Shown: positions 4,003 through 55,514, counted from the first letter of the stretch. The stretch is 64,000 nt of DNA from an uncultured Candidatus Saccharibacteria bacterium (GCA_964612745.1 CAZTCH010000002.1:1009-65008), one strand, 5' to 3'. Made by a program: numbers and translations. The notes: a model not told the origin generated them from the letters alone.

Positions 4003-4050
4003 ATTGTGTCTAGAAGATGCCCATCAAGACAAACTACACCGTTTGAAATT

Positions 4051-7660: not shown

Positions 7661-8098
7661 CTAAAAAGTTTGTGCTGTGCGGATAAATCCATACGACTGG
7701 GCACCAAAGGCATGCCCACGCATGATATCTCTTAAACCTCGGTATTCCTCCGGATAACCAAGGTTAAAAGAAAATCTATTCGCCCACCAATAGTAACGAA
7801 ACCCTTCCACTTCAAGAAACTCCTGCCATCTCTCGGGGACAAACTCCACCAGCTTACAGTTATACCCCCTGCCGGCTGATGTGAGACATACGCGCATCGG
7901 CCTCTTGTCTATTCTTACTACTTTTACCCAAGGAGCGGTTAGATGCATGCCCGCTCGCACGTCTACGCTCGTCTCGCCAGTCAGATAATTCCTCTGTATA
8001 GCAAGATGGTACGCTTCTGTGTAATGAAAGCAGAAAAGATAACAACAAACCGATAGAGTCAATATGCCGTCGGCGATAGCGACTTTACTGATAGTCAC
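7661..8098 (-). CDS. Membrane-anchored hypothetical protein, paralog A (GTG start overlapping the upstream stop as GTGA)
   Basis: Shares RPM.VC....NCKLVEF.P....EQFL motif with the 8095..8727 protein. Confidence 0.45.
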   Translation of the reverse strand: MTISKVAIADGILTLSVCCYLFCFHYTEAYHLAIQRNYLTGETSVDVRAGMHLTAPWVKVVRIDKRPMRVCLTSAGRGYNCKLVEFVPERWQEFLEVEGFRYYWWANRFSFNLGYPEEYRGLRDIMRGHAFGAQSYGFIRTAQTF

Positions 8099-8727
8099 TT
8101 TACCTCCGTTGTTGGCACAGCACTAGGAGTAGGGACCACTCCTACCCCACTAGCCTCGTCCGGTTTAAGCTCGCGTTTAATCGTGAGGAACGGATAGGAC
8201 TTTCCGCTGCCGTCATACGCATAGCTTTTCAGAATGTCCGGCAGCCGGCTTTCGTCGCCGCTATAATCGTCGCGACCATGCCATGCCAGAAATTGCTCAA
8301 GACCAGCAGGGTTAAACTCGACAAGCTTGCAGTTAAGCACGCGAGAGTTTGCGTTATTGCAAACCTGCATCGGACGCAAATCAATCTTGTGTACTTTGAC
8401 CAGAAAGGGTGGTGTAATAACATACCCCGTCCTGCCAATGCGTTCAATTTTGCCCGACCTAGCATCGTATTTGTACGCCAACTCATAGTTGTCAACAAAA
8501 TCAACGCAAAGAGCGTAAAACGCGCCAACGCCGATAAGCAAGGTAACAAACAGAACCGCAACAAGTATCAGAGCCTTAACCCAAAGGCTAAACTCTGTGA
8601 ACCAGCTTGTTATGTGTTCAGCGACTTCCTCAACGGATCCTTGTTCCATGACTTCCTCCTGGATTGATTGTAAAAGTGGTAAACTACGTATTTTTTGCAA
8701 CAACGCCTGTTGCAAACTCGAAACCAA
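8095..8727 (-). CDS. Membrane-anchored hypothetical protein, paralog B (possible SPFH-like fold)
   Basis: TM helix then a conserved block shared with paralog A. Confidence 0.45.
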   Translation of the reverse strand: MVSSLQQALLQKIRSLPLLQSIQEEVMEQGSVEEVAEHITSWFTEFSLWVKALILVAVLFVTLLIGVGAFYALCVDFVDNYELAYKYDARSGKIERIGRTGYVITPPFLVKVHKIDLRPMQVCNNANSRVLNCKLVEFNPAGLEQFLAWHGRDDYSGDESRLPDILKSYAYDGSGKSYPFLTIKRELKPDEASGVGVVPTPSAVPTTEVK

Positions 8728-8878
8728 TCAACTGCGTGCTAACACCAAAAATGGTATAGTGCGCATGTGAAAAGCCTTGAAGAATGCATTATACAATAAA
8801 ATTGTACTATTGTCCATAGTAAACTTAGGTAATAATGACCATTTTTTGCAATAAAATATAGGTAGAGTAAGGGACATT

Positions 8879-8920
8879 AAAAGCCAACACTTTTCACGGC
8901 CGTGAAAAGTGTTGGCTTTT
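8879..8920. repeat. Hairpin family copy H1 aaaagccAACACTTttcacggccgtgaaAAGTGTTggctttt
   Basis: Perfect 16-bp stem, conserved loop TTCACGGCCGTGAA; immediately 5' of R1. Confidence 0.7.
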
Positions 8921-8926
8921 AAATTA

Positions 8927-8948
8927 TTACGAAGGTGACCATGGTAAC
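8927..8948. repeat. Array repeat R1 ttacgaaggtgaccatggtaac
   Basis: One of 11 copies of the 22-26 bp conserved repeat. Confidence 0.8.
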
Positions 8949-9014
8949 TACAATATCGCTACAAGACAACCCCTAAGGCTCACCGTATGAAGATTTTGAC
9001 CACGTACAAAGCAA

Positions 9015-9521
9015 TTACGCCTGCGCTGGTTTATTCAATTCTTGTTCAGCTTTTTCTGCAAGGTCTAAAAAGTCCCCCACGTCTGCCACACTCATTTCTC
9101 GGGGAACGTAATCTTTTATACAAAAGACCCCTACAGGCATATTACTCGCGCGGTCATACAAAGATTTACCTGCGTAAAATCGTATATGCGGCTCCCCTAC
9201 CACCATTGGATTGTCTGCAAAACACGGGTCGGCCAGTGTGTCGTTAATAATTAAAATAACTTGCGACAACAACGCATGTCCACAAAAAGAAATATCCCGC
9301 GGTCCCCCAGTGGACTGCAGCCCCTGCACGGACTTAAACCACTCTCGGGCTTTATCCACAAGTGCAATAGTAGAGATTGGCACACCGAATCTTTTGACTG
9401 CTTCTCTCGTAAGACAGTCGAACCTTTCTTCTGCTGCAGTGTCTAACAAATGTAAACCCTGCACTGCACAAACGCGCTCTACATCGTTCTCTGGAATTGG
9501 TGCTTTTTGCATATGTAACAA
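9015..9521 (-). CDS. GAF domain protein
   Basis: GAF-like pattern (DTAAEERF...FCGHALL). Confidence 0.55.
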   Translation of the reverse strand: MLHMQKAPIPENDVERVCAVQGLHLLDTAAEERFDCLTREAVKRFGVPISTIALVDKAREWFKSVQGLQSTGGPRDISFCGHALLSQVILIINDTLADPCFADNPMVVGEPHIRFYAGKSLYDRASNMPVGVFCIKDYVPREMSVADVGDFLDLAEKAEQELNKPAQA

Positions 9522-9685
9522 AAATGAATGAATTATATAAACATAAAAAAGTACCGCACAATCGTACGTGTACTTTTAAACCATTTTATATGTATAAATA
9601 AAAATGCCCATAGAAATTCTAGGCCTGCTTCACCAGGTCAGAGCTTCTACGAGCTTCGTTACTTACAGTATAGCAAATAAAAATG

Positions 9686-10192
9686 CTACACCACAATTTC
9701 TATCCCCACAAAAAACATAATTGCACCTTTTGTATCTAAAATTGGTGACACCAAAAGTTCTACGTCGTACAGCTCTCCACTTTTCTTTTTGTTCGTGATA
9801 TGTAATTTCACAGATGTCTTTTTTTCAGTCATCTGCTTCCACATGTCTTTGTAAAATGCTTCTGGCATATGACCGCCCCACAACTCAGAAGGGCGCTTCC
9901 CCACCGCCTCATGCATTTGGTAGCCAGTAACTTTTTCTACCGCAGCGTTTATAAATAAAATTACTCCGTGTGCGTTGGTAATAATTACTTGCTCAATAGT
10001 ACTTTCTAATATCCGGTTCAAAGTACCACACCGCACGCACTTAATCTCCGGCCCAGTAGTGCCTTGGTCTTTCGCCAACATCTTACCGCACTTCATGCAC
10101 CGAAATTCTTTCGAATCGTGCATGAGCACCTGCGGCAAAAAACTTGCACTGCTCGTAGCATCTACATTTGTATTGATATTTTTTTCTGTCAC
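9686..10192 (-). CDS. PAS domain protein with N-terminal zinc ribbon
   Basis: CMKCG....CVRCG followed by PAS-like core. Confidence 0.5.
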   Translation of the reverse strand: MTEKNINTNVDATSSASFLPQVLMHDSKEFRCMKCGKMLAKDQGTTGPEIKCVRCGTLNRILESTIEQVIITNAHGVILFINAAVEKVTGYQMHEAVGKRPSELWGGHMPEAFYKDMWKQMTEKKTSVKLHITNKKKSGELYDVELLVSPILDTKGAIMFFVGIEIVV

Positions 10193-10524
10193 ACAGTTGT
10201 GTTAAAGGCTGCCCTCTTACCGCTTGCGCACACTTTGCATTGTCGTGCTTTCTTTGCTTGCAAATTTTACCTTTGTTCTACTGGTAGTATAGTGCTACTT
10301 TTTTTGCATTACAAGCCCGTACACAAATATAGACGCACTCCACAGAGGGCAAATAAACCTTTCGCTCAAAAGTCAACACTTTTCGTTACTACGCGCGCCT
10401 GGTAACGAAAACAGTACAAAGATACATTTGCATTGGTTATTAAACCTGCAAACTGAGCATCTTCACTTCTCTTTAATGTGAAATTGTCATACTTCCTTCG
10501 CTATTAACAGTACACTATACACAT

Positions 10525-10986
10525 ATGCCACACTCATTTGCCGTGCTGCGCAAAGACCATCGCGCGGTCGAAGAGCTGTTCAAACAACTAGAAGACACAA
10601 CTGAACGAGCGGAAAAAGGTCGGACTGAACTGTTCGCGGAACTGAAAGAACTTTTGGACCAGCACACCGAAATAGAAGAAACCATTCTCTACCCTGCACT
10701 AGAGAAAGTAGAGCTCACCCACGACGCCACTTTAGAGGCAGAAGAAGAGCACAACGTGGCAAAAACATTATTAGCAGAACTGGAAGCAAGCGACCCCACC
10801 ACGGAGCACTGGACCGCCAAGCTAACCGTGCTCAGAGAAAGTATTGAGCACCATGTAGAAGAAGAGGAGAATGAATTGTTCCCACAAGCAGAGAAAGCAC
10901 TAGACCAAGACACGCTTGCTGAGCTGGAAGAGCAGCTCAATAAGGAGAAAGAAAACTCGGATAGCATTTTAGAAGAAATCTTGTAG
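10525..10986 (+). CDS. Hemerythrin-like metal-binding domain protein
   Basis: H..E...H....E spacing typical of hemerythrin HHE; only + strand gene in the array. Confidence 0.55.
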   Translation: MPHSFAVLRKDHRAVEELFKQLEDTTERAEKGRTELFAELKELLDQHTEIEETILYPALEKVELTHDATLEAEEEHNVAKTLLAELEASDPTTEHWTAKLTVLRESIEHHVEEEENELFPQAEKALDQDTLAELEEQLNKEKENSDSILEEIL

Positions 10987-10998
10987 ATAGACGAAAAA

Positions 10999-11035
10999 AC
11001 ACCCTGACATTCCCTGAATGCTAGGGTGTTTTGTA
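10999..11035 (+). terminator. Terminator hairpin caccctgacattccctgaatgctagggtg then a T-run
   Basis: Direct reading. Confidence 0.5.
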
Positions 11036-11065
11036 TTCTGGATGAATCCTAGCTTTATTTCTAGC

Positions 11066-11689
11066 CTACACACCTAGCAATATTCGCAGGTTTTCAAAAT
11101 GATGCAGAAACGAGTACAGAGCAAAATACGCATAGGCAAACCCAGGAAGCATGAACAGCAGGGCAACCAGCACTAGTCCGCCGGACCTGTTTACACTTGG
11201 CTTGTTAACAGGGTGGAAAGCTGCAATAAGCAACGCAGACCCCAAAAAGTGAGCGTATGCAGCAACGGAACCAAAAAATCCAATCAAAATAAAAGCTTGA
11301 TACCATTCGGGTAGACCCCCAACCGCATACACCAAAATAGCCAAAGCCAAATCCAGAACAAAAAAATACGCTAACTCTTTTATCAGTTTTTCTGCTGAGT
11401 TTCGATACTCCACATCTACTGCAGCCATTTTTGTGGTATCAAATGTTACCTTGTGTCTTTTTGCAACAATTCTATGTATGATCTCGTACTCAAATGCGCT
11501 CAGACCAAAAAGTAAAATAGTTGTTAGAAAAACGTTTGGCAAAATACTGTTGAGGTACGGTGTAATAGTCGCAAAGAAAAACAAACCTGTGCAATAGGCC
11601 AACACCCTCACAGACACAACCAAGTACCCACTCAAAACCGCCACGGCTTTACTCTTTTCAAAATCCGAACTCACAATCTCCTGCTCCAT
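11066..11689 (-). CDS. Hypothetical polytopic membrane protein
   Basis: Multiple hydrophobic helices. Confidence 0.4.
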   Translation of the reverse strand: MEQEIVSSDFEKSKAVAVLSGYLVVSVRVLAYCTGLFFFATITPYLNSILPNVFLTTILLFGLSAFEYEIIHRIVAKRHKVTFDTTKMAAVDVEYRNSAEKLIKELAYFFVLDLALAILVYAVGGLPEWYQAFILIGFFGSVAAYAHFLGSALLIAAFHPVNKPSVNRSGGLVLVALLFMLPGFAYAYFALYSFLHHFENLRILLGV

Positions 11690-11743
11690 AAATAAAATAT
11701 CTTAAAACTTCTGCTGACTATTTAAGTATACCCCCATAGCTAC

Positions 11744-11765
11744 TTACGAAGATGGCCATGGTAAC
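11744..11765. repeat. Array repeat R2 ttacgaagatggccatggtaac (2 mismatches), 3 bp after the NUDIX stop
   Basis: Sequence match. Confidence 0.7.
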
Positions 11766-11770
11766 ATCTG

Positions 11771-12268
11771 TTATCTAAAATCGTTTGGATTAAAATAATC
11801 TTTAAGACCATTTGTTTGCTCGCAAAGTTCAATAGAGTTAAGCTCCTCTTTTGAAAAAAATCCGACTTCTTCACACTCGTCTGTAGGGGTAAACTCCAAA
11901 CTTTCTATCTCAATCTGATAAGCCAATACGAGGGAGTAATACCAATCCATGCTCCTACTATTTTCAAATCGCCATGTCCAAGCATACACTGGTTTTTCAG
12001 AAATCTTTTTTATCTGCATACCCGTCTCCTCCTCAATCTCACGCTTAAGTCCATTTTTTATATCTTCGCCAAAATCTAACCCTCCTCCTGGAAGCTCCCA
12101 CTCCCCACCTAGCTTTTGAGATTCTTTGAGTAATAGAATTTTACCTTCTTTAACAAAAATACCTTTTACAGAAACTCTGTAAAAGCTGTCGGGGAAATCT
12201 TTAGATTTATGAAGTGATGTCATATGTTTAATACTCGTATTATTAGCAATAATAGCACACAAACGCAA
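11771..12268 (-). CDS. NUDIX hydrolase
   Basis: Nudix box GGGLDFGEDIKNGLKREIEEETGM. Confidence 0.7.
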   Translation of the reverse strand: MRLCAIIANNTSIKHMTSLHKSKDFPDSFYRVSVKGIFVKEGKILLLKESQKLGGEWELPGGGLDFGEDIKNGLKREIEEETGMQIKKISEKPVYAWTWRFENSRSMDWYYSLVLAYQIEIESLEFTPTDECEEVGFFSKEELNSIELCEQTNGLKDYFNPNDFR

Positions 12269-12462
12269 TTTAGAATTTTGTGGTAATACCTACGTCGCCC
12301 TTCAACGAACCACTGTATAGCTTAGTGATCGTCGTCATGACGGCAGCCCTCTTTGGCTGTACTCATACTCAACCCAGCCTGGTCAGAATATCAATTTGGA
12401 TACTTAAAATTCTTTATCCATCTCTACAATTTTTAGCTCATCAGCAGAGAATAATCTTTTCG

Positions 12463-12484
12463 TTACGAAGGTGACCATGGTTGC
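12463..12484. repeat. Array repeat R3 ttacgaaggtgaccatggttgc (3' end degenerate)
   Basis: Sequence match. Confidence 0.65.
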
Positions 12485-12588
12485 GGTGACAAAAAGTTTC
12501 TTAGTTTTTTGTCGCAATAAAAAATGCCCGAAGTCTTTTTAAGAACTCCGGGCCAACATCGTGTTCGGGTATTATCTGGATAGCAATT

Positions 12589-13182
12589 CTATAACTCTAT
12601 TGCTTTCCAAAAACCACCTTCAATTGGAAGCTTGCCAGTCCTACACCAGCTGGTAAGCACATCACTATAGTACGCCTCCCAAGCCTGCATTTGAACTTGC
12701 GCCCACATATCTGAATCCTCCACAAGCGAGTTGGGGCAACCTGCTTTATTGTGAACATTTAGATACAAATACCTACTAGTACGAGAGCGAATATACCAGT
12801 AGATACATTTTTGGGGCTGGCTTGGCAAGGAACATCCTTTAAGGGTGTAAGCCTTAGTTTTGCCACAGTCGATGATTCCTCGTAGATTCGCAACCCCTTT
12901 CCGAACCAAAGCTTGATAGCCGTGTACAATGTCTAAGTCGTTCTGAGAGAGACCACGCGACAGCTCCGGCGATTGTCCATAAAAAGGGAGAAACATTGCA
13001 AAATTCAGGATGCCGGATTTTTGCCCGGATCGAACAATGTCACAGAGTTCCCCGCTCATGTACGGCACGGAAGTGCAAGTGGCACCCACAAAGACTGGCT
13101 TTCCTAGCGTTAGGAGCCTAGTAAGAGTAAGCACCATGCCATCGGGGGAAACCACTTTCTCTTTACGAAATTTCATATCCAC
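12589..13182 (-). CDS. Hypothetical protein (cassette cargo)
   Basis: 197-aa ORF between R3 and R4. Confidence 0.35.
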   Translation of the reverse strand: MDMKFRKEKVVSPDGMVLTLTRLLTLGKPVFVGATCTSVPYMSGELCDIVRSGQKSGILNFAMFLPFYGQSPELSRGLSQNDLDIVHGYQALVRKGVANLRGIIDCGKTKAYTLKGCSLPSQPQKCIYWYIRSRTSRYLYLNVHNKAGCPNSLVEDSDMWAQVQMQAWEAYYSDVLTSWCRTGKLPIEGGFWKAIEL

Positions 13183-13380
13183 CTCCTCGAAGTTTGAATT
13201 CTAATATTAAATCATATTTTCTAACTTTAGTCAAGTCTTTGACGCTCAATACGACTTCTAATACACTCGGATTACAAAAAATACGATCTGCAATCCTATT
13301 TTTGCAAAAATCGAAATATGATCCGGGAATTTTTAGGGTGCCATAAAGAAAATACGCACGTAACCGATTTAGTGCCTCGC

Positions 13381-13402
13381 TTACGAAGATGACCATGGTA
13401 AC
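13381..13402. repeat. Array repeat R4 ttacgaagatgaccatggtaac
   Basis: Sequence match; the 93-aa ORF 13163..13444 reads through it and is probably spurious. Confidence 0.75.
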
Positions 13403-13453
13403 GGGTTCCATACTTACTAAGGCGGGCACATGACAGAAAAACACCTAACACTA

Positions 13454-13493
13454 AAAGCCAACACTTTTCACGGCCGGGAAAAGTATTGGCTTG
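13454..13493. repeat. Hairpin family copy H2 (imperfect) aaaagccaacacttttcacggccgggaaaagtattggctt
   Basis: Same loop and stem ends as H1. Confidence 0.6.
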
Positions 13494-13550
13494 AAAGTTG
13501 GGTTAGTTGCAAGCAAATCCTCCCCCACTCCCACAAATTTACCAAATTTA

Positions 13551-13592
13551 AAAAGCCACTAGTTTTCACGGCCGTGAAAACTAGTGGCTTTT
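13551..13592. repeat. Hairpin family copy H3 aaaagccACTAGTTttcacggccgtgaaAACTAGTggctttt
   Basis: Stem differs from H1 by compensatory changes on both arms. Confidence 0.7.
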
Positions 13593-13616
13593 GGCGCTAG
13601 GCACGCATGGTAGAGA

Positions 13617-14006
13617 CTAGGACATTTTTGTGCACAGTTCAACCAAAAAGCCGTTTATGTCCGCAACATAGGCAATTGTTTGCCCCCACGGTTTTTGCTC
13701 TGGCTCTTTCACAACCTTTGCACCTGCTTGAGTTGCTTTGCTAAATGCAGCCGCAAGGTCTTCTACCACAAATGCAATTTCTGCTGGAGGTGGTAACATG
13801 CCTGCATCACTCTTTGCAATCGCCACGCCGTTGTACTCCGCTATGCTGTATGATGCAAACGCAAGCGTGGTGCCACCAGTTTCTAACTCGGCATAGTCTT
13901 TTTCTGGAGTAATAAATTTTTGGGCAAACCCAAACGCGTCAACATAAAAAGCAATCGTCTTTTCGACATCTGCTACGTAAAGAATTGTGTATCCGTATGT
14001 AATCAT
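13617..14006 (-). CDS. VOC/glyoxalase-bleomycin resistance family protein
   Basis: Two beta-alpha-beta-beta-beta modules. Confidence 0.6.
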   Translation of the reverse strand: MITYGYTILYVADVEKTIAFYVDAFGFAQKFITPEKDYAELETGGTTLAFASYSIAEYNGVAIAKSDAGMLPPPAEIAFVVEDLAAAFSKATQAGAKVVKEPEQKPWGQTIAYVADINGFLVELCTKMS

Positions 14007-14046
14007 ATTGGTATTTTACCACAACGCACACAGCTCTACATCTTGG

Positions 14047-14068
14047 TTACGAAGGTGATCATTGTAAC
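14047..14068. repeat. Array repeat R5 ttacgaaggtgatcattgtaac (preceded by TTGG)
   Basis: Sequence match; about 5 bp after the AlkD-like stop. Confidence 0.7.
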
Positions 14069-14073
14069 CATGT

Positions 14074-14844
14074 CTAGCGCTGGGCGTGTTTAAGAATCCA
14101 CGTAGTATGCTCGTTTTTGGAACGCGACCAGCGCGCGACAACTTTTTGCGCTTCTTTGGGATTCACTTTCAGCCAGTCGCGCAAATGATTTGCCACAGAC
14201 TTTTTTACGAACTTCACACTGTCTTCTTTGAGTAATTCGAGTATTTCCAAAACTGGTTTCGGGTTTTCGCTCCACACGTCCAGCTTGGGTGCCCAAGGTA
14301 GTTTTGGACGCAAGCCTTCGCTGGCAAGCCGCCGCAAATGAAAATTTTTACTCTTTGCCCACCGCGCACACACCGCAAGCGTTTGCACTGGGTAGGCACG
14401 AGCAAAAGGACGGATAGCGTACTCCCCCGTGTTCCGCTTAGTTATTTCTTCTAGAACTTGCATGGAAACCCGAAAGTGCGCCACACCGTATTTTTCTACA
14501 AACTTACCCACGGGCATGAGCCAGTAGTAGTTAGTGAACATGCCGGTCTCGTGTGGATTTTCCGGACCTAAAATCTGCATGAGCACTGCCAGTGCTGCAG
14601 GATATGACTCTGGCAAATACCGCTGCAAGTTGTCTGCAATAATTTCTACCCGCGCTGTATATGTTTTGCCTACCACTTCTTTTTTCACACTCGCACAAAA
14701 CGCTTTTTTCTGAAACTCGGGATACACCACAACCAACTTGTCTGCCAACAATAGTGCCAGACTCTCCCCAAACGCATCGGTAATAGAATATTTCCCCGTT
14801 TCCGGATTTTTAAAACTATGCTTCTGCACCTCTTGTTTCGCCAT
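14074..14844 (-). CDS. DNA alkylation repair enzyme (AlkD/AlkC-like HEAT-repeat glycosylase family)
   Basis: HEAT-like repeat composition (C-terminal VKFVKKSVANHLRDWLK). Confidence 0.5.
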   Translation of the reverse strand: MAKQEVQKHSFKNPETGKYSITDAFGESLALLLADKLVVVYPEFQKKAFCASVKKEVVGKTYTARVEIIADNLQRYLPESYPAALAVLMQILGPENPHETGMFTNYYWLMPVGKFVEKYGVAHFRVSMQVLEEITKRNTGEYAIRPFARAYPVQTLAVCARWAKSKNFHLRRLASEGLRPKLPWAPKLDVWSENPKPVLEILELLKEDSVKFVKKSVANHLRDWLKVNPKEAQKVVARWSRSKNEHTTWILKHAQR

Positions 14845-14930
14845 ACTACTCCCCTGCTTTACTTACTTCTACTGTACCACACCCTTCAACCCTAATGAAG
14901 GCGGGCTTATATCAGAAAAGCACACAAATC

Positions 14931-14970
14931 AAAAGCCAACACTTTTCACGGCCGTGAAAAGTGTTGGCTT
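14931..14970. repeat. Hairpin family copy H4 aaaagccaacacttttcacggccgtgaaaagtgttggctt, followed by a degenerate R-like gaagaaggtgaaaggtaagcc
   Basis: Identical to the H1 core. Confidence 0.7.
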
Positions 14971-15026
14971 GAAGAAGGTGAAAGGTAAGCCAAAAACGAG
15001 CATTCGCACTCCAAAATTACCTGCAT

Positions 15027-15070
15027 GAAAAAGCCATCAGTATTCACGGCCGTGAATACTGATGGCTTTT
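15027..15070. repeat. Hairpin family copy H5 aaaaagccATCAGTAttcacggccgtgaaTACTGATggctttt
   Basis: Third distinct covarying stem variant. Confidence 0.7.
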
Positions 15071-15556
15071 AGTTTTATGATTGGGATGGGTGTAGATAGA
15101 GCGTGCACGGTAACGGGCTAGGCGCGCAATCCAGGGTTTTTTGCTGCGAGTTGGAGTACTTTTTTTTAGTCCCACAAGATTCACGTCTTCCAGCTTTTTA
15201 AACCGTATGCAGCTTTTACCCACACTAACCTTGCCTAGTTCTGTTGCATGCTTTTCGGCAATGTACTGACCTGCCTCCAAAGCACACACATACACGCTTA
15301 CGTACTGCTTCTGGTTGGCCAGCGCAACAACGGGCCACTGCACTGTCTCTTTTTTGTGATTCAAGTATGGGAAACTACCATACCCCAGCATGTTAGACGC
15401 CATGTGAGGCTTTAGTTTTGGCACAGCCTTTTGGATAAATTCGTGCAAAAACAAAATAAGCTCTTTCCGCTCTGCCGGAACCGCCGCAAGATACTCTTTA
15501 ACCGATTTCGCTTCTACGGGTTTAAACATGTTCATATGTACTGGGTTAGCCAACAA
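15044..15556 (-). CDS. DUF1801 (YdhG-like) domain protein
   Basis: N-terminal composition; C-terminus overlaps hairpin H5. Confidence 0.4.
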   Translation of the reverse strand: MLANPVHMNMFKPVEAKSVKEYLAAVPAERKELILFLHEFIQKAVPKLKPHMASNMLGYGSFPYLNHKKETVQWPVVALANQKQYVSVYVCALEAGQYIAEKHATELGKVSVGKSCIRFKKLEDVNLVGLKKSTPTRSKKPWIARLARYRARSIYTHPNHKTKSHQYSRP

Positions 15557-15616
15557 TGCGTACAGTATATCCTAAAAATTACGTTCGAAGTATTGCCAGC
15601 ATGCCCCTACCTTTGG

Positions 15617-15638
15617 TTACGAAGGTGACCATGGTAAC
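15617..15638. repeat. Array repeat R6 ttacgaaggtgaccatggtaac (perfect, preceded by TTGG)
   Basis: Sequence match. Confidence 0.8.
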
Positions 15639-15643
15639 AGATT

Positions 15644-16204
15644 CTAGCTTTGCAGGTGGGACACGTCGTTCCAAAACATAATGCGCCACTTCCCTTTTTC
15701 TTCGTTAAACATACATTTTGAAATGCCACAATTATCCATGACGAGAGATTCATCAAAACTTTGGAGCAAGCTTTCAGTCAGCCCATCACCCAACATACAG
15801 TACGCAACCAAAGCTTTAAAAAATGCAGCATGACCTACAAGAACATTGTGTTTTGTTGAAAGACTTTCCAGAAAGGTCTTTGTCTCTATCAAGCGTGCAT
15901 GCAACTCCGAGTAACCTTCTGCGTAGCCATAGGCGCCATCGGTAAACTTACCGCGACGCTCCTTTAGACATACTTTTACTTGGGACCGCACACCAGTTAC
16001 TTTTTCTATCTCCGCCGCGGTCTGAGCCGCTCTGGTAATTCCTGAATGGTAGATTGAATCAATAGCAGCATGCCCAAAACGCTTCGCAACCAAAGTTGCC
16101 TCTGAAGCACCTTTTTCAGTCAGCGGATCTTCCGCCCCTGCAAAATTAGTATCTACATTCGACATGCATTCACCATGCCGAATGAAATAATAGTATTTTC
16201 TCAT
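15644..16204 (-). CDS. Histidine phosphatase (phosphoglycerate-mutase-like) family protein
   Basis: IRHGE catalytic RHG motif. Confidence 0.6.
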   Translation of the reverse strand: MRKYYYFIRHGECMSNVDTNFAGAEDPLTEKGASEATLVAKRFGHAAIDSIYHSGITRAAQTAAEIEKVTGVRSQVKVCLKERRGKFTDGAYGYAEGYSELHARLIETKTFLESLSTKHNVLVGHAAFFKALVAYCMLGDGLTESLLQSFDESLVMDNCGISKCMFNEEKGKWRIMFWNDVSHLQS

Positions 16205-16225
16205 TTCTTGCCTTGTTCTTATTGG

Positions 16226-16247
16226 TTACGAAGGTGACCATGGTAAC
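16226..16247. repeat. Array repeat R7 ttacgaaggtgaccatggtaac (perfect)
   Basis: Sequence match. Confidence 0.8.
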
Positions 16248-16251
16248 AATA

Positions 16252-17049
16252 TTATAGACTAACCAACTTATGCTTTACTTTGCTGCCCAACCACTTTTGA
16301 CTTAGCTTTTCATAATGCTCTGTTAAGTCAGTCACCCTCAGATCAATTTTCTTGCGTCTACTTAGTACCTTTTCAATCTCCGGATGTTTTTGCAAGTATG
16401 ATTTTAATTTAGCGGGCACAATGTCATCTTGGGATATTATCTGTATGCCCTTGCCAACAACGCTGCGAATCCCTCTCTTCAATATCGGATAATGAGTACA
16501 ACCTAATACTATCGCCTCAACTTTTTGCTTTAAAAGCGGTTTCAGATATTCACGAAGGATTGGCCCTGCCCACTGCAACCCATCGTTCTCGATAAGTGGA
16601 ACTAGTAAGGGCGCTGCTTGCTGATACACCTTCACATTCGGCTTTATTTTTTTAAATTCTTCCACAATAGCATTCGAGCTAACTGTGGCTTGCGTTGCCA
16701 ATACGCCAATACGACTACTACCTATCTGAACAGCTGTTTCAACCGTGGGAACAATTACACCTAACACCCTTCTATCCGGATAATACTTTGGTAAATATTC
16801 ACGTTGTATCCTACGTAATGCTCTTGTTGAAGCAGTGTTACAAGCCAAGATAATTAACTTGCAATCATTCTGAAACAAATACTCAACAGCTTCCAATGTA
16901 AACTGATATATTGTTTCTTGTGACCGACCACCATAAGGTACTCGCTTAGTGTCTCCTAAGTAAAGATAATCATACTGAGGTAGCTGCTTCGAAATACTTT
17001 TTAGTAAAAGCAAACCGCCTACACCACTGTCAAATATGCCTATTTTCAT
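16252..17049 (-). CDS. murI: Glutamate racemase
   Basis: IFDSGVGGL motif; the ORF-track N-terminus MVTFVTKNK is translation of repeat R8, so the true start is at MKIGIFDSG. Confidence 0.7.
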   Translation of the reverse strand: MKIGIFDSGVGGLLLLKSISKQLPQYDYLYLGDTKRVPYGGRSQETIYQFTLEAVEYLFQNDCKLIILACNTASTRALRRIQREYLPKYYPDRRVLGVIVPTVETAVQIGSSRIGVLATQATVSSNAIVEEFKKIKPNVKVYQQAAPLLVPLIENDGLQWAGPILREYLKPLLKQKVEAIVLGCTHYPILKRGIRSVVGKGIQIISQDDIVPAKLKSYLQKHPEIEKVLSRRKKIDLRVTDLTEHYEKLSQKWLGSKVKHKLVSL

Positions 17050-17074
17050 TCCGGTATCATACCATAAAATTAAC

Positions 17075-17506
17075 TTATTTTTGGTTACGAAGGTGACCAT
17101 GATAACGGGGGTTGAACTGTTGTGGAAAGCGCTTGGTTGATATGCCTAACTTGTTCAAAATCAGCCCCGATACCTTAAAACAAAGAGGATACAGCAACAC
17201 GACAATTGCGATGTTCACATATTCATTCGCAAAAAGCTCTGGCCCTGCTAAAAGAGCCAGCAGCGCTAAGCATCCGAAATACAAAGTATGATATAGCAAT
17301 CTACCAAGCATACCCCAACGCCCCACCCGGGCTTCGAAAAATGCCACAGTATACAGCAGCAGTGTGAAGACCAAAATATACACCCAATACTGACTGACGA
17401 GCCGCACAACAATCCCCCACACTATTCTGTACCCCTCACGCAATCCAGTGTCCATTAAAGATGGTAAAGCCTGAGCCACCTGCGCTACTTCATTTGTTTG
17501 TTGCAT
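17075..17506 (-). CDS. Hypothetical membrane protein (C-terminus reads through R8)
   Basis: Hydrophobic helices. Confidence 0.35.
   Translation of the reverse strand: MQQTNEVAQVAQALPSLMDTGLREGYRIVWGIVVRLVSQYWVYILVFTLLLYTVAFFEARVGRWGMLGRLLYHTLYFGCLALLALLAGPELFANEYVNIAIVVLLYPLCFKVSGLILNKLGISTKRFPQQFNPRYHGHLRNQK
17085..17106. repeat. Array repeat R8 ttacgaaggtgaccatgataac
   Basis: Sequence match. Confidence 0.75.
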
Positions 17507-17517
17507 ATCCTATTTGG

Positions 17518-17539
17518 TTACGAAGGTCACCATGGTAAT
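17518..17539. repeat. Array repeat R9 ttacgaaggtcaccatggtaat
   Basis: Sequence match. Confidence 0.7.
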
Positions 17540-17563
17540 CAAAACTCAGAATGAAGCACTTAG

Positions 17564-18145
17564 CTAACCACTAGAAACAGCCTCGCCACTAACAATCTTT
17601 TCTAAAACCTTACGCGCTTTCTCTGAATGCCCCAAAGCAAGCTTACGAATTACTCCTAAATTTTCCGGATTGTTCATAGGAAGCGTACTTGTTGCAGAAA
17701 ATAAAAAATTTAAACTTGCTACCACCTCAGCAAGAGTTTTAACTATGTCCTCATTCTGAGTACTTAATGCCAATGGCGTACTTAAACCATTTAAAGCCTG
17801 TGAAATGTTTGAAATATGCTGGTTAAATCGGTGCGACGTGTCTTTGGTCACCCACCCCGGAGAGTATTCTTCCATTGTACTATATATTAACTTTGCATCA
17901 AGGTTACTCCCATCGTGCAAACTAATTTGCCCAAGATAGTCTTGCATGGCAACATTAATTAACGTCAAAAGACTAACGGCAAGATCGTGCACTTTTTCGT
18001 TCCTTAAGGTTTCAATATCAATCTTCTTTTGCTTCCTATATAACCAAACACCGGAGTATGCAATTATTAAACCAGCAAATAAAGTTCCCACAAATGTATT
18101 ATCTGCAGTCTGTGCTAGAGCATTAGAAAATGTATTTATATCCAT
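17564..18145 (-). CDS. Hypothetical protein with N-terminal TM helix
   Basis: ORF only. Confidence 0.35.
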   Translation of the reverse strand: MDINTFSNALAQTADNTFVGTLFAGLIIAYSGVWLYRKQKKIDIETLRNEKVHDLAVSLLTLINVAMQDYLGQISLHDGSNLDAKLIYSTMEEYSPGWVTKDTSHRFNQHISNISQALNGLSTPLALSTQNEDIVKTLAEVVASLNFLFSATSTLPMNNPENLGVIRKLALGHSEKARKVLEKIVSGEAVSSG

Positions 18146-18190
18146 AAGCGACTAATATACAATCAAGTAACAGTACCACTCACGTGCATC

Positions 18191-19126
18191 CTACCTTTGG
18201 TTATGAATGTCACCATGGTAACGGACATGGGAGCTTATATTTTTGGGGAGGAGTTTCTGTGCTAGTAATTCAAAAGTAATGCCTGCGGCCTTGGCAGCTT
18301 TGGGTAGTAAGCTTTCCGAAGTGAGTCCTACGCCACAAGGGGTGTTTATCTCCAAAATATAGAGCACACCATCTTGCAATATAAAATCAGCCCGAGAATA
18401 ACTACCCAGCTGTAAATCTTTGTGAATTTTAAGAGAAATAGCCTGCGCTTTCTTTTGAACCCCCACATCTACAGAAGGAGCGAATGGAATTTCTTTAGCC
18501 ATGCCTGAATACTTGCTTTTGTAATCAAACCACTTTCCATTTGGCGGTACAATCTCAACCACGGGGAGTGCTTTTCCATTTAACACTCCAACTGTTATTT
18601 CAACACCAATAAGCTGCTTCTCCGCATACACACGACAGGGAAGTTGGAGGATTTTCTTCACCAAAAAGCCAGAGAGGTCTTTTAGCTTGTGTAATATTAC
18701 TACTTCATGAGACGAACCCCCATAAGTAGCCTTAAGAACGCAGGGAAAACCAAACTTAATTATATCTTGCTTTGTTTTAACAATTTTCCATGGAGCAGTT
18801 ACAATACTATTTCTATCACAATATTGCTTAAAAAGAATCTTATCAAAAGCAATCTTTGCTCCTTTGGGCTCTGAACCAACATAAGGTATTTTAGAAGACT
18901 TTAGGAATCTGTAGAGAGTACCATCCTCCCCTTCTCTGCCGTGCATTACCGGGAAGGCTACATCACACACTTTTATGGCAGAACGTAACTCAGAATAACC
19001 TCGTTTAAAGTCAAACACCTGCACTGCGTGGCCATTTGATATCAATGCCTTTTTAACCATACTTGCTGAAAGCAAGGAAATTTTTCGCTCTGATGAAGAT
19101 CCGCCAGTAATAATCAAAATATTCAT
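18191..19126 (-). CDS. ddl: D-alanine--D-alanine ligase-like ATP-grasp enzyme
   Basis: N-terminal MNILIITGGSSSERKISLLSA and ATP-grasp-like C-terminal half. Confidence 0.6.
   Translation of the reverse strand: MNILIITGGSSSERKISLLSASMVKKALISNGHAVQVFDFKRGYSELRSAIKVCDVAFPVMHGREGEDGTLYRFLKSSKIPYVGSEPKGAKIAFDKILFKQYCDRNSIVTAPWKIVKTKQDIIKFGFPCVLKATYGGSSHEVVILHKLKDLSGFLVKKILQLPCRVYAEKQLIGVEITVGVLNGKALPVVEIVPPNGKWFDYKSKYSGMAKEIPFAPSVDVGVQKKAQAISLKIHKDLQLGSYSRADFILQDGVLYILEINTPCGVGLTSESLLPKAAKAAGITFELLAQKLLPKNISSHVRYHGDIHNQR
18201..18222. repeat. Array repeat R10 ttatgaatgtcaccatggtaac
   Basis: Sequence match. Confidence 0.65.
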
Positions 19127-19202
19127 ACAGTAACCATACCAAAAAATCGCCAGCCAAGCGATTCTATACAAAAAAACTACCAAATCTCAGTAATTTGATT
19201 GG

Positions 19203-19224
19203 TTACGAAGGTGACCATCGTAAC
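19203..19224. repeat. Array repeat R11 ttacgaaggtgaccatcgtaac, 30 bp from the tRNA-Gln 3' end
   Basis: Sequence match. Confidence 0.75.
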
Positions 19225-19254: not shown

Positions 19255-19328
19255 TGGCTGGGGTACTAGGATTCGAACCTAGGATGACGGGACCAGAACC
19301 CGTTGCCTTACCGCTTGGCTATACCCCA
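19255..19328 (-). tRNA. tRNA-Gln (anticodon CUG), CCA encoded
   Basis: Minus-strand cloverleaf: UGGGGUA acceptor with U1-A72, GGUUCGAAUCC T-arm, UUCUGGU anticodon loop, G73-CCA. Close to the canonical bacterial tRNA-Gln. Confidence 0.85.
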
Positions 19329-19354
19329 TTGTTACCACAGGTATGACACTTACG

Positions 19355-19511
19355 TGCCTTATCCCGACTCCGAGTCGGGACCATACCCACTGCACAAAAA
19401 CATGTGCGGGAACCCCAGCCAAAAAAATACGAATGTCTATATTTTGTTATGAAAGAAGTGCTGCATGTCCGTTGCCTTATCCCGACTCGGAGTCGGGACT
19501 GTACCCCATCC
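19355..19511. repeat. Two copies of G(T)TGCCTTATCCCGACTC(C/G)GAGTCGGGAC..TACCC hairpin repeat adjacent to the tRNA
   Basis: Units at 19355-19390 and 19471-19511, each with perfect hairpin cccgactc.gagtcggg. Confidence 0.55.
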
Positions 19512-19617
19512 AACTATAAAAAATTCGAAAGTATTTATAGGAAAAGTACCGGAAATTGCTAAAGTATTATACAATACATAGGTTAAATTGCAACTAAATT
19601 AAATTAGCTAGAAACCC

Positions 19618-22134: not shown

Positions 22135-22410
22135 AAGAACAGATGGGTGCCATCAAGAGAAACTCCAAATCCCAAGCACCAAATATCAAATAAATTACAA
22201 TCCGCCAGCTGGCGGACAAAATTCAAATCAAAACTGTAAACTGAAATGCAATTTAGTTATGAGTTTATAGTTGCAGTTTTGCGTTCCTGTCGTTAGATGG
22301 GCACCATCTGACACCATGCTCGTAGTTATGGTTTGAGGGCGCATCGACACAAATAAGTATAAAACTTACCTGTCAGATGGTGCCCATCTAACTCTACCGT
22401 TTTTCTTGCG
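22135..22410. mobile_element. MITE-like repeat copy A: AC-rich word arms plus long hairpin cagatgggcaccatctgaca...tgtcagatggtgcccatct
   Basis: Shares arm words (ccaaatcccaagcaccaaatatcaaataaatt; agttgcagttttgcgtt) with copies at 36.8, 38.1 and 48.0 kb. Confidence 0.5.
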
Positions 22411-36744: not shown

Positions 36745-37015
36745 AAATTCCAAATCTCAAGCACCAAATAACAAATAAATTCCAAAATCCAAAGTAAAAA
36801 TCAAAACTCAAAAGTCAAAACGCAAAACTGCAACTCAAAAATGTAACAACTTTTCTTCTACAGGAGCCCTTGATGGGCATCTTCTCACATAATTCTGTTG
36901 AAATATCTGCAGCGTACACAACGCTCGTGGTGCGTTACAAAGTTTTTGTGAGAAGATGCCCATCAAGACATGCTTTGCACTTTCTATTTCGGATTTGAAA
37001 ATTAGAAATTAAAAA
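36745..37015. mobile_element. MITE-like repeat copy B with 21-bp perfect inverted repeat cttgatgggcatcttctcaca (36869-36889 / 36948-36968) and AC-rich word arms
   Basis: Whole element is the reverse complement of the copy at 47915-48165, including the loop. Confidence 0.6.
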
Positions 37016-37513: not shown

Positions 37514-38056
37514 TTAGGCAGCTTTCTTTGCCAATGCACGTCGTGTCGGACGGACTGTCTTTGGGCTTGCCACATGTGCGCGTCGACGAATGGTCTTCGT
37601 ACTCGCTGCAGGTAAACTGCTGGACTGCATGTACTCAGTTTCCACTTCCCCACCACCTTGTCGCATTGCCACCACTTCGTCTGTGGTTACACCATGAGAT
37701 GTTTTTGTTCGGCGGAGAATAAAACTCGCCATGCTTTGTGTGGTTCTGTCTTCGTAAATTGCAGCGTACCAGATAAGTCCCAACCAAACACCGTACCATG
37801 CACCAAAAGAAACAGCGACAGCAGTGGTAATAACCCCCAAGGCTTGTGCATACAAACTAGAAATATCTGCACCAAGCAAAAATGCAGCAATAAAGGCAGC
37901 GCGTTGTACCATCAAAAACAACAGCACCCCTAAGACCATAGCAAGAAAAATGTAGAAAGATTTTCTTGTATTTTCGTTCATGACTTTTGTTTCACTATTA
38001 AAGTTGTAATTTGATTTTATTATACCACATTTTAAAAAACTTAACTCAAAATGCAA
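37514..38056 (-). CDS. Hypothetical membrane protein
   Basis: TM helices; start uncertain. Confidence 0.35.
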   Translation of the reverse strand: MHFELSFLKCGIIKSNYNFNSETKVMNENTRKSFYIFLAMVLGVLLFLMVQRAAFIAAFLLGADISSLYAQALGVITTAVAVSFGAWYGVWLGLIWYAAIYEDRTTQSMASFILRRTKTSHGVTTDEVVAMRQGGGEVETEYMQSSSLPAASTKTIRRRAHVASPKTVRPTRRALAKKAA

Positions 38057-38156
38057 AAGTCAAAAGTAAAAACTGCAACTAAAAACTGTAAACTGAGATA
38101 CTTTCTGTAGTTCACAATTTTTGAGTTGCAGTTTTGCGTTTTCAGTTTTGACTTTT
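38054..38156. mobile_element. MITE-like copy C: ~40-bp terminal inverted repeats (caaaagtcaaaagtaaaaactgcaactaaaaactg / tttttgagttgcagttttgcgttttcagttttgactttt) around a short core, lacking the central hairpin module
   Basis: Arms are mutual reverse complements and match the arms of copies B and D. Confidence 0.55.
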
Positions 38157-38159
38157 TAG

Positions 38160-38235
38160 TTTCCTTTTTTGACCTAAGCCTTATCCGTAGATATCCGTAG
38201 GTATCCGTAGATTCGTAGGTATCCGTATATCAGCG
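38160..38235. repeat. Micro-tandem repeat atccgtag(g/a)t x5 (degenerate)
   Basis: Direct reading. Confidence 0.6.
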
Positions 38236-39423: not shown

Positions 39424-40719
39424 ATGAAAGTTCGATACCGCTACACACTTATCGCCCTTGGCATTGCCACCTTCCTTATTCTTGCCCCATCCCTATTACT
39501 CTATGTACAGGGCAAACGGTGGACGACAAAACCAACACAGTCTCCCAAAACAGGCATTATCTCTATCGAAACAGAGCCGAATAATGCCACTGTCTTTGTA
39601 AACTCCACAGAAGAGCTCACCACCCCTGGCGCAGTCCGGTTTCTTCCTACTGGCAGATACGACACCCGTATAACCAAAGAAGGTTACAAAACATGGGAAA
39701 AAACTTTGTCGGTTATTGCCGGACGCGTGACCCACGCCAACCCAAACCCAGCCAAGCTCGCACTGGTGAAAGACACGCAACCTCAAACAATCGCTACAAA
39801 CGTCACTCATGCAGCAAGTAGCGACGAGCACATTGCGTACACTACAACCGGAAAAAAACTGGTTATTACTGACCGCACCGGAAGCACTGCAGAGTCCACA
39901 ACCTTACCAGCAGAAGCAACAACGCTGCAAACAGGAGCACAAAAAAATCAGTTCATAGTGACTGGACCAGCGTATGCATGGGTGGTTGCGCCCAACACAG
40001 CACCAATACAACTCCCCGCAAACTTTTCGGAAGGAACCACCTTCCCTACTGTAGATGCAGTCGTACACCTTACCCCCACAGGCGACCTACTCTACACCAC
40101 CCTCGCACAACCAAACAATGTAAAAATCTTAGCTCGAAAAGTGAAAGGTTTTACGCTGCACAGTTCGGATGTCTACTACCTCGCCGCAAAAGAAACGCAA
40201 CAAGACAAACCACAACAACTCCTACTCATACATGGCACACTCAAAGAAGGAGCAGTTATTGGCATGCAGGAATTTAGCACAAACCTGAACGATACAGAGA
40301 GCAGCGTGTTTCTCGACGAAGGCAAAAGCGTGTACATACTCCAAGCAAACACATTGTACCGACTCGCGGAAAATGCAAAGCAAATCGCAACGGGAGTGAC
40401 CAGTGCCAGCACTACCTCTGGAAACCTGACCTACACGACCCCGAGCGAATTTTGGTCTTACTCCAGCACGAGTGACAGCTCGTCACTAATCTCTCGTTCC
40501 TCGCAGCCCTTTAGCACGTACTTGATTGCCCCAAACAAGCAGTACGTTCTCGCTGCACCAGACAAAGAGCTGGTAGCCTTAGAAATAAATGCGGAGTTTG
40601 GGCAAAACCGTTACACCTTGGATACCGCCACAGACAAACTATCCCCGATTGCATTTATGCAAAATACCCACGCTCTGTACCTCTCAGGGACGACTCTAAA
40701 ACTGATTGAGCTATTTTAA
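39424..40719 (+). CDS. PEGA domain-containing membrane-anchored protein
   Basis: N-terminal TM then PEGA-like IETEPNNATVFVN..G..P. Confidence 0.45.
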   Translation: MKVRYRYTLIALGIATFLILAPSLLLYVQGKRWTTKPTQSPKTGIISIETEPNNATVFVNSTEELTTPGAVRFLPTGRYDTRITKEGYKTWEKTLSVIAGRVTHANPNPAKLALVKDTQPQTIATNVTHAASSDEHIAYTTTGKKLVITDRTGSTAESTTLPAEATTLQTGAQKNQFIVTGPAYAWVVAPNTAPIQLPANFSEGTTFPTVDAVVHLTPTGDLLYTTLAQPNNVKILARKVKGFTLHSSDVYYLAAKETQQDKPQQLLLIHGTLKEGAVIGMQEFSTNLNDTESSVFLDEGKSVYILQANTLYRLAENAKQIATGVTSASTTSGNLTYTTPSEFWSYSSTSDSSSLISRSSQPFSTYLIAPNKQYVLAAPDKELVALEINAEFGQNRYTLDTATDKLSPIAFMQNTHALYLSGTTLKLIELF

Positions 40720-41135
40720 CGTTCCGCGTGTGCATCCAGCGCTTGGTTAACCATTCGGTCAGCGTCTTTGTTAAACTCGCGCCTCACGTGTTCAAACGTT
40801 ACTTCCGTAAAATTATTTTTTAGTTGGATTACTTTTGCAGCCAATACTTGTAGTGTTGGCTCTTTTATTTTGTACCGGCCCTGCATTTGTCGCACGATCA
40901 GTTCGCTATCCATGTACACGGCAACCGCTTGCGCACCAAGGTCTTTTGCTGTTTCCAGTGCTTTTACCAGTGCACTGTACTCCGCTACGTTGTTGGTAGC
41001 GATGCCAATGTATGACCCATGTTCAAAAATAACTTCAGAAGTTTCTGCGTTACGAATGACTACTCCAATTGCTGCGTGCCCTGGGTTACCCCGTGACCCA
41101 CCATCAGTATGTACTGTTACTTTTTGTATATGCAT
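40716..41135 (-). CDS. rnhA: Ribonuclease HI
   Basis: TDGGSRGNPG motif and DEDD-type RNase H residues. Confidence 0.8.
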   Translation of the reverse strand: MHIQKVTVHTDGGSRGNPGHAAIGVVIRNAETSEVIFEHGSYIGIATNNVAEYSALVKALETAKDLGAQAVAVYMDSELIVRQMQGRYKIKEPTLQVLAAKVIQLKNNFTEVTFEHVRREFNKDADRMVNQALDAHAER

Positions 41136-47836: not shown

Positions 47837-47914
47837 AGTGGTTGTTAGTTAATAAATGTTAAAAGAAATAGGCAAATAACTTATAGTTATCTCACTCTCT
47901 AGAGATGAGAATAA

Positions 47915-48165
47915 CTGAGAAGTCAAAATTCAAAAGTCAAAACTACAACTATAAACTGAAAACTATGTACGGAGCGTGTCCTGATGGGCATCTTCTCACA
48001 AAATCTTTGTAGCGCACTGCGGGCACTGTTTATACTACAGATATTTTAATAGAAGTATGTGAGAAGATGCCCATCAAGGGCTCGTGCATAAGAAAAGTTT
48101 TTAAATTTTTGAGTTGCAGTTTTGCGTTTTGATTTTTGAGTTTCTAGTTTTGTGGTTTTCCCACC
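47915..48165. mobile_element. MITE-like repeat copy D with perfect inverted repeat gatgggcatcttctcaca (47983-48000 / 48058-48075) and ~57-nt loop
   Basis: Arms and loop are the reverse complement of copy B. Confidence 0.6.
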
Positions 48166-55188: not shown

Positions 55189-55300
55189 AAAATGAGGACA
55201 GAGGTTAGAGAATAGAGGGTAGAGAGTAGAAAGAATGCAGAGGGCTAAGGGCTAAGGGCTAAGAAAAAATACAATTTCTAATTTTCAATTTTTAATTTTT

Positions 55301-55514
55301 CTTTCTCGTTACTCGCAACTAGTTACTCGTTACTACTTTTGGGAAATTCCAAATCACAAGCACGAAATATCAAATAAATTACAATATCCAAAATCCCAAA
55401 CGAATACACTTTCTTATTTTGGACATTGATGCATTGGAACTTGTTTGTTATTTGATTTTTGTCATTTGTGTTTTTTATCTTTCTCGCAACTCGCAACTAG
55501 TTACTCGTCACTAT
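55301..55514. repeat. ~142-bp segment (55337-55478; inverted copy of 25866-25988) bracketed by 36-bp imperfect direct repeats ctttctcg..actcgcaactagttactcgt.act at 55301-55336 and 55479-55514
   Basis: Direct reading of both direct repeats and of the inverted homolog. Confidence 0.65.

Follow-up and report, generated by a model that had tools for sequence, protein, structure and literature searches.

A lineage-specific family of multicopy palindromic hairpins, candidate strong intrinsic terminators, in a cassette array of an uncultured Candidatus Saccharibacteria bacterium

Repetitive extragenic palindromic (REP) sequences and REPINs number tens to hundreds per genome, scattered outside genes, and carry a GT(A/G)G-type tetranucleotide that is recognised by an IS200/IS605-like Y1 transposase (RAYT, REP-associated tyrosine transposase), while parS (TGTTNCACGTGAAACA) is a 16-bp palindrome with contiguous half-sites that is bound by ParB and located near the origin. 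Together with intrinsic bidirectional terminators, bacterial interspersed mosaic elements (BIMEs), Neisseria uptake-sequence pairs, Correia elements and the attC sites (59-base elements) of integrons, these are the described systems closest to the palindromes reported here, which lie in a 64-kb stretch (hereafter the window) of chromosomal DNA from an uncultured, ultra-small Candidatus Saccharibacteria bacterium, a member of the candidate phyla radiation (CPR, or Patescibacteria) according to its genes (PBP2, MraW, MraZ, MreB, RecJ, DnaX, glycolysis and pentose-phosphate genes; Pfam). The window contains five ~42-bp palindromes of the form AAAAGCC-N7-TTCACGGCCGTGAA-N7'-GGCTTTT, hereafter the hairpins, all confined to a 6.2-kb stretch within an array of accessory gene cassettes whose junctions are marked by a second repeat (R). 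Judging from their sequence, placement and flanks, we lean towards the view that they belong together as a multicopy family, specific to this lineage, whose members act as very strong intrinsic terminators or as hairpins at mRNA 3' ends. The copies in the window are:

8879-8920: hairpin of type A (insert AACACTT), a perfect palindrome with arms reaching 8877-8922
13453-13494: hairpin of type A' (degenerate), lower half of doublet 1, with two uncompensated changes and the plus-strand T-tract lost
13551-13592: hairpin of type B1 (insert ACTAGTT), perfect, upper half of doublet 1
14931-14972: hairpin of type A, perfect over 19-bp arms, lower half of doublet 2
15029-15070: hairpin of type B2 (insert ATCAGTA), perfect, upper half of doublet 2, overlapping the end of the DUF1801 open reading frame (ORF)

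All five had been listed in a first-pass annotation of this DNA, which placed two of them 1–2 nt away (13454 and 15027 for 13453 and 15029) and described an exact core with exactly complementary inserts; this holds for four of the five, the copy at 13453 being degenerate, with TTCACGGCCGGGAA as core and AAGTATT as right arm. The family is real and discrete. The 14-mer core had five matches in the window with two mismatches or fewer, against 0.25 expected from shuffled sequences, and for the full hairpin motif the expected number of chance matches was 0. A covariance model was built on nine copies (the five of the window and four of a related genome, see below) and the whole window was scanned with filters off; exactly the five copies were recovered (48–73 bits), and every other match (≤ 18 bits) was an ordinary terminator.

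Four of the copies are perfect palindromes with arms of 19–23 bp and 0 nt between the arms. What had been taken for a conserved loop turned out, on folding, to be a conserved apical stem around a GGCC tetraloop: the 14-mer core, a palindrome in its own right, pairs as the upper end of the stem and only these 4 nt are left as the loop. Three stem variants were found overall, AACACTT (six copies, including three of the five in the window), ACTAGTT and ATCAGTA. In the alignment of the nine copies from two genomes, 91.7% of the cells are paired, changes on both sides occur in 4 of the 19 pairs (8 cells, none via a G.U intermediate) and unpaired exceptions in five pairs; covariation was 0.175 in the true register, none for slides of −3 to +1 and 0.02–0.06 for slides of +2 and +3. 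The compensation in the stem is genuine but thin, with three variants behind it, so that the covariation reported by the first-pass annotation was correct although weaker than stated. In the 13453 copy, the one stem base that has changed pairs as a G.U wobble in gene-sense (minus) RNA, whereas the antisense RNA has a C.A mismatch there. All variable positions fall within the 7-nt middle of the arm (chance 0.036 per variant, for three positions within 7 of 19), which means that constraint is stronger on the base and the apex than on the middle. Type A is identical over 38–42 nt in its six copies from the two genomes, the neighbouring DNA being 41–94% identical, a finding that speaks for sequence-level conservation, recent copying or gene conversion in addition. 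The earlier argument that structure, and not just sequence, is under selection is thus borne out by the compensatory changes at four pairs but needs to be tempered, since the identity of type A would also imply conservation or copying of the sequence. A coding hypothesis was rejected, as the reading frames across the hairpins differ between copies.

Several features suggest a role at transcript ends. The hairpins are laid out as an A-tract, a perfect stem of 19–21 bp, the GGCC loop and a T-tract, and in four cases (two genomes) they begin 0–24 nt past a stop codon; B1, for instance, lies 24 nt past that of the glyoxalase gene, with a decayed R between (gene sense minus). The gene-sense T-tract (≥ 4 T directly after the stem) is kept in 9/9 copies, and the opposite-strand one has been lost in 3/3 doublet type-A copies, among them the copy at 14931, where the minus-strand tract is intact and the plus-strand one gone, and where the DNA-alkylation-repair gene starts 86 nt downstream of the hairpin. 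In a consensus terminator scan the hairpins ranked at the top of the region, and their folding energies (dG about −26 to −30 as RNA and −19 to −22 as DNA) correspond to roughly twice the stability of the ordinary terminators of the window (−10 to −17 and −8 to −13, respectively). When 200 nt of gene-sense RNA were folded, the doublets formed independent hairpins (z −5.5 and −6.4). The single hairpin at 8879 (dG −22.5 as DNA, −30.2 as RNA) occupies the distal array end, 94 nt past the GAF gene (R between) and 6 nt away from the last R, and is followed by a strong minus-strand promoter-like site (8816->8788, 11/12 matches).

The array into which the hairpins are set, and the modules that they form in it, comprise the following features:

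19255-19328, minus strand: tRNA-Gln(CTG), the array beginning ~30 nt past the tRNA 3' end
8927-19224, minus strand: R-repeat array with 11 R copies and hairpins inside the array
8927, 11744, 12463, 13381, 14047, 15617, 16226, 17085, 17518, 18201 and 19203: the R copies
8948 to 8879, minus strand: R, then the type-A hairpin
13616 to 13453, minus strand: decayed R, then B1, a 56-nt spacer and A'
~15117 to 14931, minus strand: possible decayed R, then B2, a 56-nt spacer and A
13495-13550: spacer of doublet 1, 56 nt
14973-15028: spacer of doublet 2, 56 nt, equal in length to that of doublet 1
10366-10411: chimeric remnant, the left type-A half-arm AAAAGTCAACACTTTTC fused to an R-like palindrome GTTAC-TACGCGCGCCTG-GTAAC (N12)

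R is a repeat of 23–26 bp (gene-sense GTTACCATGGTCACCTTCGTAACCAA), itself an imperfect 23-bp palindrome, that by inspection does not match attC or dif, and each copy lies 20–60 nt upstream of a minus-strand gene. The array genes include ddl, murI, histidine phosphatase, DUF1801, DNA-alkylation repair, glyoxalase, NUDIX, PAS, GAF and several unknowns, and a hemerythrin gene on the strand opposite to the other cassettes; ddl and murI are normally core cell-wall genes. A Pfam scan of the ~60 ORFs of the window gave no match of the recombinase, transposase, RAYT or Phage_integrase type. The junctions are marked by R, with hairpins at only 3 of ~12 of them, and where a hairpin is present the constant order in gene sense is a gene, R in intact or decayed form, and the hairpin. 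The two parts of the chimeric remnant, which has the PAS gene on one side and the hemerythrin gene, oriented the other way, on the other, together form a 10-bp stem (TTTTCGTTAC/GTAACGAAAA), and it looks like a scar of such an R-then-hairpin arrangement.

Core-to-core spacing is exactly 98 bp in all three doublets that were found (two in the window and one in the related genome). The two window spacers are 41% identical in register, compared with 86–100% for the hairpins, and the doublet 1 spacer is 82% identical to its counterpart in the relative. This spacer has no conserved fold and no conserved reading frame, and a structured RNA in the spacer was rejected because RNA folds of both doublets had no conserved fold. 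In the window the two doublets bracket the DNA-alkylation-repair/glyoxalase gene pair.

A pattern search with variable stem lengths, named as a check in the first-pass annotation and run over 185,579 species-representative genomes, located the family in one related Saccharibacteria metagenome-assembled genome (MAG; GCA_964652865.1), the nearest public genome with the hairpin, labelled uncultured Candidatus Saccharibacteria; the scan also returned one palindrome with the same core from unrelated Verrucomicrobia, and a single chance match. This MAG has four hairpin copies on two contigs (L001 and L004). L004 is syntenic with the window (same flanks, same tRNA-Gln, 80–96% nucleotide identity), but the set and order of the cassettes differ and the breakpoints of homology fall at R; compared between the two genomes, the hairpins move as modules between R repeats. 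Its hairpin doublet is located at the distal array end, directly abutting the last R, and is homologous to window doublet 1 (89% over 142 bp); beyond it come an AT-rich stretch that includes TATAAT and, after this, the flanking gene. L147, a second assembly from this MAG population that is 99.9% identical to L004, confirms the arrangement. The other contig, L001, carries two perfect type-A copies without R nearby, both upstream of a pilB-like ATPase gene; the first lies 2 nt past a NUDIX stop codon and the second overlaps the stop codon of a small ORF (plus-strand genes), with hairpin starts 0–3 nt past the stop codons, and a small gene is bracketed by two identical hairpins. As these copies have no R in their vicinity, the hairpin is not tied to R, and in both genomes it accompanies accessory-type genes.

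Further searches did not extend the family. A metagenome scan gave 11 matches, all of them non-palindromic chance matches in high-GC contigs, although its N{4,14} gap would miss very short inserts; in a viral scan the R repeat was absent and the bare 14-mer had > 120 chance matches and one true palindrome, on an unrelated contig of 55% GC (L093); and BLAST of the hairpin against phages and plasmids gave no match. No Rfam family reached the gathering threshold for the hairpins (in the window only tRNA-Gln passed), and permissive searches gave sub-threshold matches to generic miRNA-precursor hairpins. Homology and exact-protein searches for orthologous arrays returned unitigs of the window itself, L147 and distant relatives without this hairpin, and no further stem variants. 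A literature search found no report of the 14-mer, of integron-like arrays in Saccharibacteria/Patescibacteria, or of the sample accessions. Both unrelated palindromes are perfect, with the TTCACGGCCGTGAA core and an AAGCC/GGCTT base; that of the Verrucomicrobia MAG (L003, 340-395) has 12-nt inserts and no T-tract, and that of the viral contig (L093, 9275-9312) is intergenic with 2-nt inserts. They are probably cases of convergence or ascertainment, because the core was fixed in the searches and a GCC...GGC base is common among terminators.

The distant relatives (flank protein 58–60% identical) carry repeated long hairpins of their own:

L144, 1026-1063 and 2503-2536, and L145, 821-858: hairpin AGAGGACGGCCCTCT-NGGA-AGAGGGCCGTCCTCT, directly after genes
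L142, 1708-1750, also 1054-1083: hairpin with a 20-bp stem abutting the tRNA-Gln 3' end

On this basis, lineage-specific multicopy hairpins at gene ends seem to recur in the group. In an AT-rich CPR relative (L148) a different palindromic junction repeat, CCGCTAGG-N5-CCTAGCGG, flanks a histidine-phosphatase cassette, its copies being located as follows:

L148, 5509-5602, 6666-6715, 7479-7591 and 9605-9635: junction repeat

In another relative, L149 (6861-19388), about 20 small co-directional accessory genes directly follow a tRNA-Gln(TTG), with no obvious junction repeat.

From the above we infer that the hairpins end transcription and that the family spread together with the cassettes. They would ride in short non-coding modules, consisting of a single hairpin or a B-56 nt-A doublet, placed after genes and after R repeats of the tRNA-Gln-adjacent array. 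RNA polymerase transcribing the minus-strand cassettes would form the hairpin and be released at the T-tract, which would end the transcription unit and insulate the genes downstream, and the module at the distal array end may shield the flanking core genes from read-through. Duplication and recombination of modules along with cassettes would have spread the family; the base (GCC/GGC with the A/T tracts) and the GC-rich apex would be constrained, with the AT-rich middle drifting under compensation, and in this proposal the stems stay perfect because mismatches weaken the hairpin. Like intrinsic bidirectional terminators, the hairpins have an A-tract, a GC-closed stem-loop and a T-tract directly after stop codons, and their symmetry would allow function on either strand. 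Unlike them, the stems are perfect over 19–21 bp (8–12 bp in the other terminators of the window), and the copies are near-identical, confined to accessory cassette DNA and partly arranged in 98-bp doublets. The combination of high stability, multiple copies and restriction to accessory DNA fits modules that were duplicated and carried during cassette shuffling. The first-pass annotation had offered bidirectional terminators travelling with cassettes, recombination substrates and protein-binding sites as options, and the first of these appears to fit best, given the position after genes, the retained gene-sense T-tract and the modular movement.

A number of observations weigh against this interpretation. 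The T-tracts are short (4–5 T) and the stems are far longer than termination requires. Within the window they are restricted to the accessory array; the ~55 genes elsewhere use ordinary hairpins or none, a distribution unlike that expected of a general terminator. The identity of type A in six copies from two genomes indicates copying or homogenisation and not structural selection alone, and the orthologue of the ACTAGTT copy in the relative (B1' in L004 and L147) tolerates three adjacent mismatches, present in the second assembly too. Finally, the doublet spacing is fixed in spite of the divergent spacers, which simple tandem terminators would not need.

Among the other explanations, unrelated ordinary terminators resembling each other by chance have next to no probability. 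It is true that AAAAGCC...GGCTTTT is a common terminator base and that the unrelated L003 and L093 carry palindromes with the same core, but zero matches are expected by chance in the window, the copies share 86–100% identity over 42 nt, their covariance scores (48–73 bits) are separated from all other matches (≤ 18 bits), and homology extends into the doublet spacers and flanks; the possibility that the first-pass annotation had set against its own claim is thereby ruled out. A selfish palindrome of the REP/REPIN type or a MITE (miniature inverted-repeat transposable element), copied in trans by a transposase (RAYT/IS200-like or other) and with terminator activity as a side effect, is unlikely, though the likeliest of the alternatives. 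It would accommodate identical 42-bp copies at non-orthologous sites in two genomes, a discrete family without intermediates in the covariance scan, a fixed doublet spacing that recalls REP doublets, assemblies that break at the copies as at repeats (the short-read unitigs L016, L137, L138 and L146 from Logan, SRR12762304, end inside hairpin cores), and an occurrence in one lineage only, with one MAG among the species representatives and none in the metagenome scan. REP/BIME, REPIN, Neisseria uptake-sequence pairs and Correia elements are likewise short, extragenic, near-identical and lineage-specific palindromes, often after genes and sometimes paired, and those elements can act as terminators or mRNA stabilisers. 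The hairpins differ from REP/REPIN in being perfect, with A/T-tract flanks and no conserved tetranucleotide outside the stem (no 5' GTAG-type tetranucleotide, and no target-site duplication at six type-A junctions). Moreover, no RAYT or other transposase or recombinase was seen among the ~60 window ORFs, the observed copy number is low (five in 64 kb, all within one ~6-kb stretch), both members of a doublet are self-symmetric and not inverted copies of each other as in REPIN doublets, and in the array the hairpin moves with R-bounded modules and not alone. A DNA uptake sequence (DUS/USS), which is a short motif strongly over-represented throughout a genome and also found as single copies within genes, was rejected as an identity, since the half-sites GCCGTGAA and TTCACGGC occur only inside the five hairpins, with no single copies in the window.

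We consider it very unlikely that the hairpins are DNA recombination joints, either attC-like or serving as a 42-bp homology patch for cassette exchange, e.g., after natural transformation. Their array differs in content between close relatives, they bracket genes (the small gene of L001 and, as doublets, the DNA-alkylation/glyoxalase pair of the window), they abut R repeats, and the half-hairpin/R-like chimera at 10366 resembles a recombination scar. As with attC, palindromes lie in an array of promoterless-looking single-gene cassettes with functions typical of cassettes (glyoxalase, DNA-alkylation repair, NUDIX, DUF1801), and the ends are conserved with a middle that is variable but complementary. 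However, the homology breakpoints between the two genomes fall at R and not at the hairpins, which are missing from most junctions (the 23–26-bp R is at every one) and also have copies outside the array. Their ends are AAAAGCC/GGCTTTT, without R''/R' core sites (RYYYAAC/GTTRRRY), and the perfect 19–23-bp arms have neither extrahelical bases nor a central unpaired spacer, so that nothing distinguishes the strands and the asymmetry required of attC sites is missing; in addition, there is no intI in the window, no integrase nearby, and the array abuts a tRNA-Gln. The recombination-substrate option of the first-pass annotation is thus a poor fit. An equally slight probability is given to an RNase III site that cuts polycistronic transcripts, or to an apex (TTTCAC-GGCC-GTGAAA) bound by a dimeric ParB-like protein or regulator. 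The stem of about two helical turns suits RNase III and is unneeded for termination, variation is restricted to the 7-nt middle with apex and base invariant, and the spacing is fixed at 98 bp. For protein binding, the first-pass annotation's third option, only a partial resemblance to parS is available, whose inner half-sites TTTCAC/GTGAAA are identical to the halves of the hairpin apex. Identity with parS is not supported, as GGCC splits the half-sites by 4 bp and a further 12–14 bp of palindrome surrounds them; canonical parS matches in the window are at chance level, leaving no canonical site there to compare with, the GC skew is uniformly negative with no switch marking an origin, and, unlike parS, the copies are clustered in a cassette array. 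Furthermore, the core halves never occur outside hairpins, no regulator gene is associated, and the polarity of the T-tracts is explained by termination and not by protein binding. Beyond these readings, the hairpin modules and R might be parts of an undescribed, integrase-distant cassette-exchange system of CPR/Saccharibacteria anchored at tRNA-Gln, in which R is the recombination site, the hairpin (single or as a 98-bp doublet) a mobile ORF-less "terminator cassette" or end-of-array insulator, and apex and base are read by a dedicated protein; such a protein would explain the middle-only variation and the fixed doublet spacing, yet the proposal is a long shot, hardly less improbable than recombination joints or protein binding.

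Some further observations concern the surroundings of the array. Two adjacent paralogous genes on the minus strand (7661-8098 and 8095-8727), with the shared motif NCKLVEF... and no Pfam match, lie in the interval that separates the array-end hairpin from the conserved flank, and L004 lacks them at the corresponding place. The DNA upstream of tRNA-Gln (19340-19520, minus strand) contains two 5' fragments resembling tRNA-Gln, with a hairpin (GTCCCGACTCSGAGTCGGGAT) in place of the D-arm region, and a good promoter-like site (19593->19566) precedes them; L004 also has an extra partial tRNA-Gln copy. A dispersed intergenic repeat, GATGGGCATCTTCT, is found at 4009, 5234, 22295, 36871, 36948, 47982 and 48059, with inverted pairs ~75 bp apart, and adjoins A-rich heptamer-type tandem repeats (AAAACTC/AAAAGTC/AAAACTG and similar) in several intergenic regions; further locations are ~22160-22290, 36745-36846, 38029-38176, 47913-48150 and 55273-55513. 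A short hairpin at 40839-40861 (AGCCAATACT-TGT-AGTGTTGGCT) matches the outer stem of type A in 19/20 nt without the core, but it was rejected as a family member, the likeness being probably coincidental, since an RNase H-like ORF (40716-41135, minus strand) encloses it.

The hairpin family is most likely a lineage-specific CPR/Saccharibacteria addition to the known class of multicopy palindromic gene-end elements. It shows that multicopy palindromes at gene ends can ride along with gene cassettes, which by itself is a modest result. In practical terms, the hairpins would mark the boundaries of transcription units in a variable gene array, and as repeats they break short-read assemblies exactly at this accessory region. 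The more unusual feature is the R-delimited array anchored at tRNA-Gln, which raises the question of how cassettes are gained and lost without a nearby recombinase. If the hairpins were recognised parts of such a cassette system, and not passive terminators, the finding would be considerably more important.

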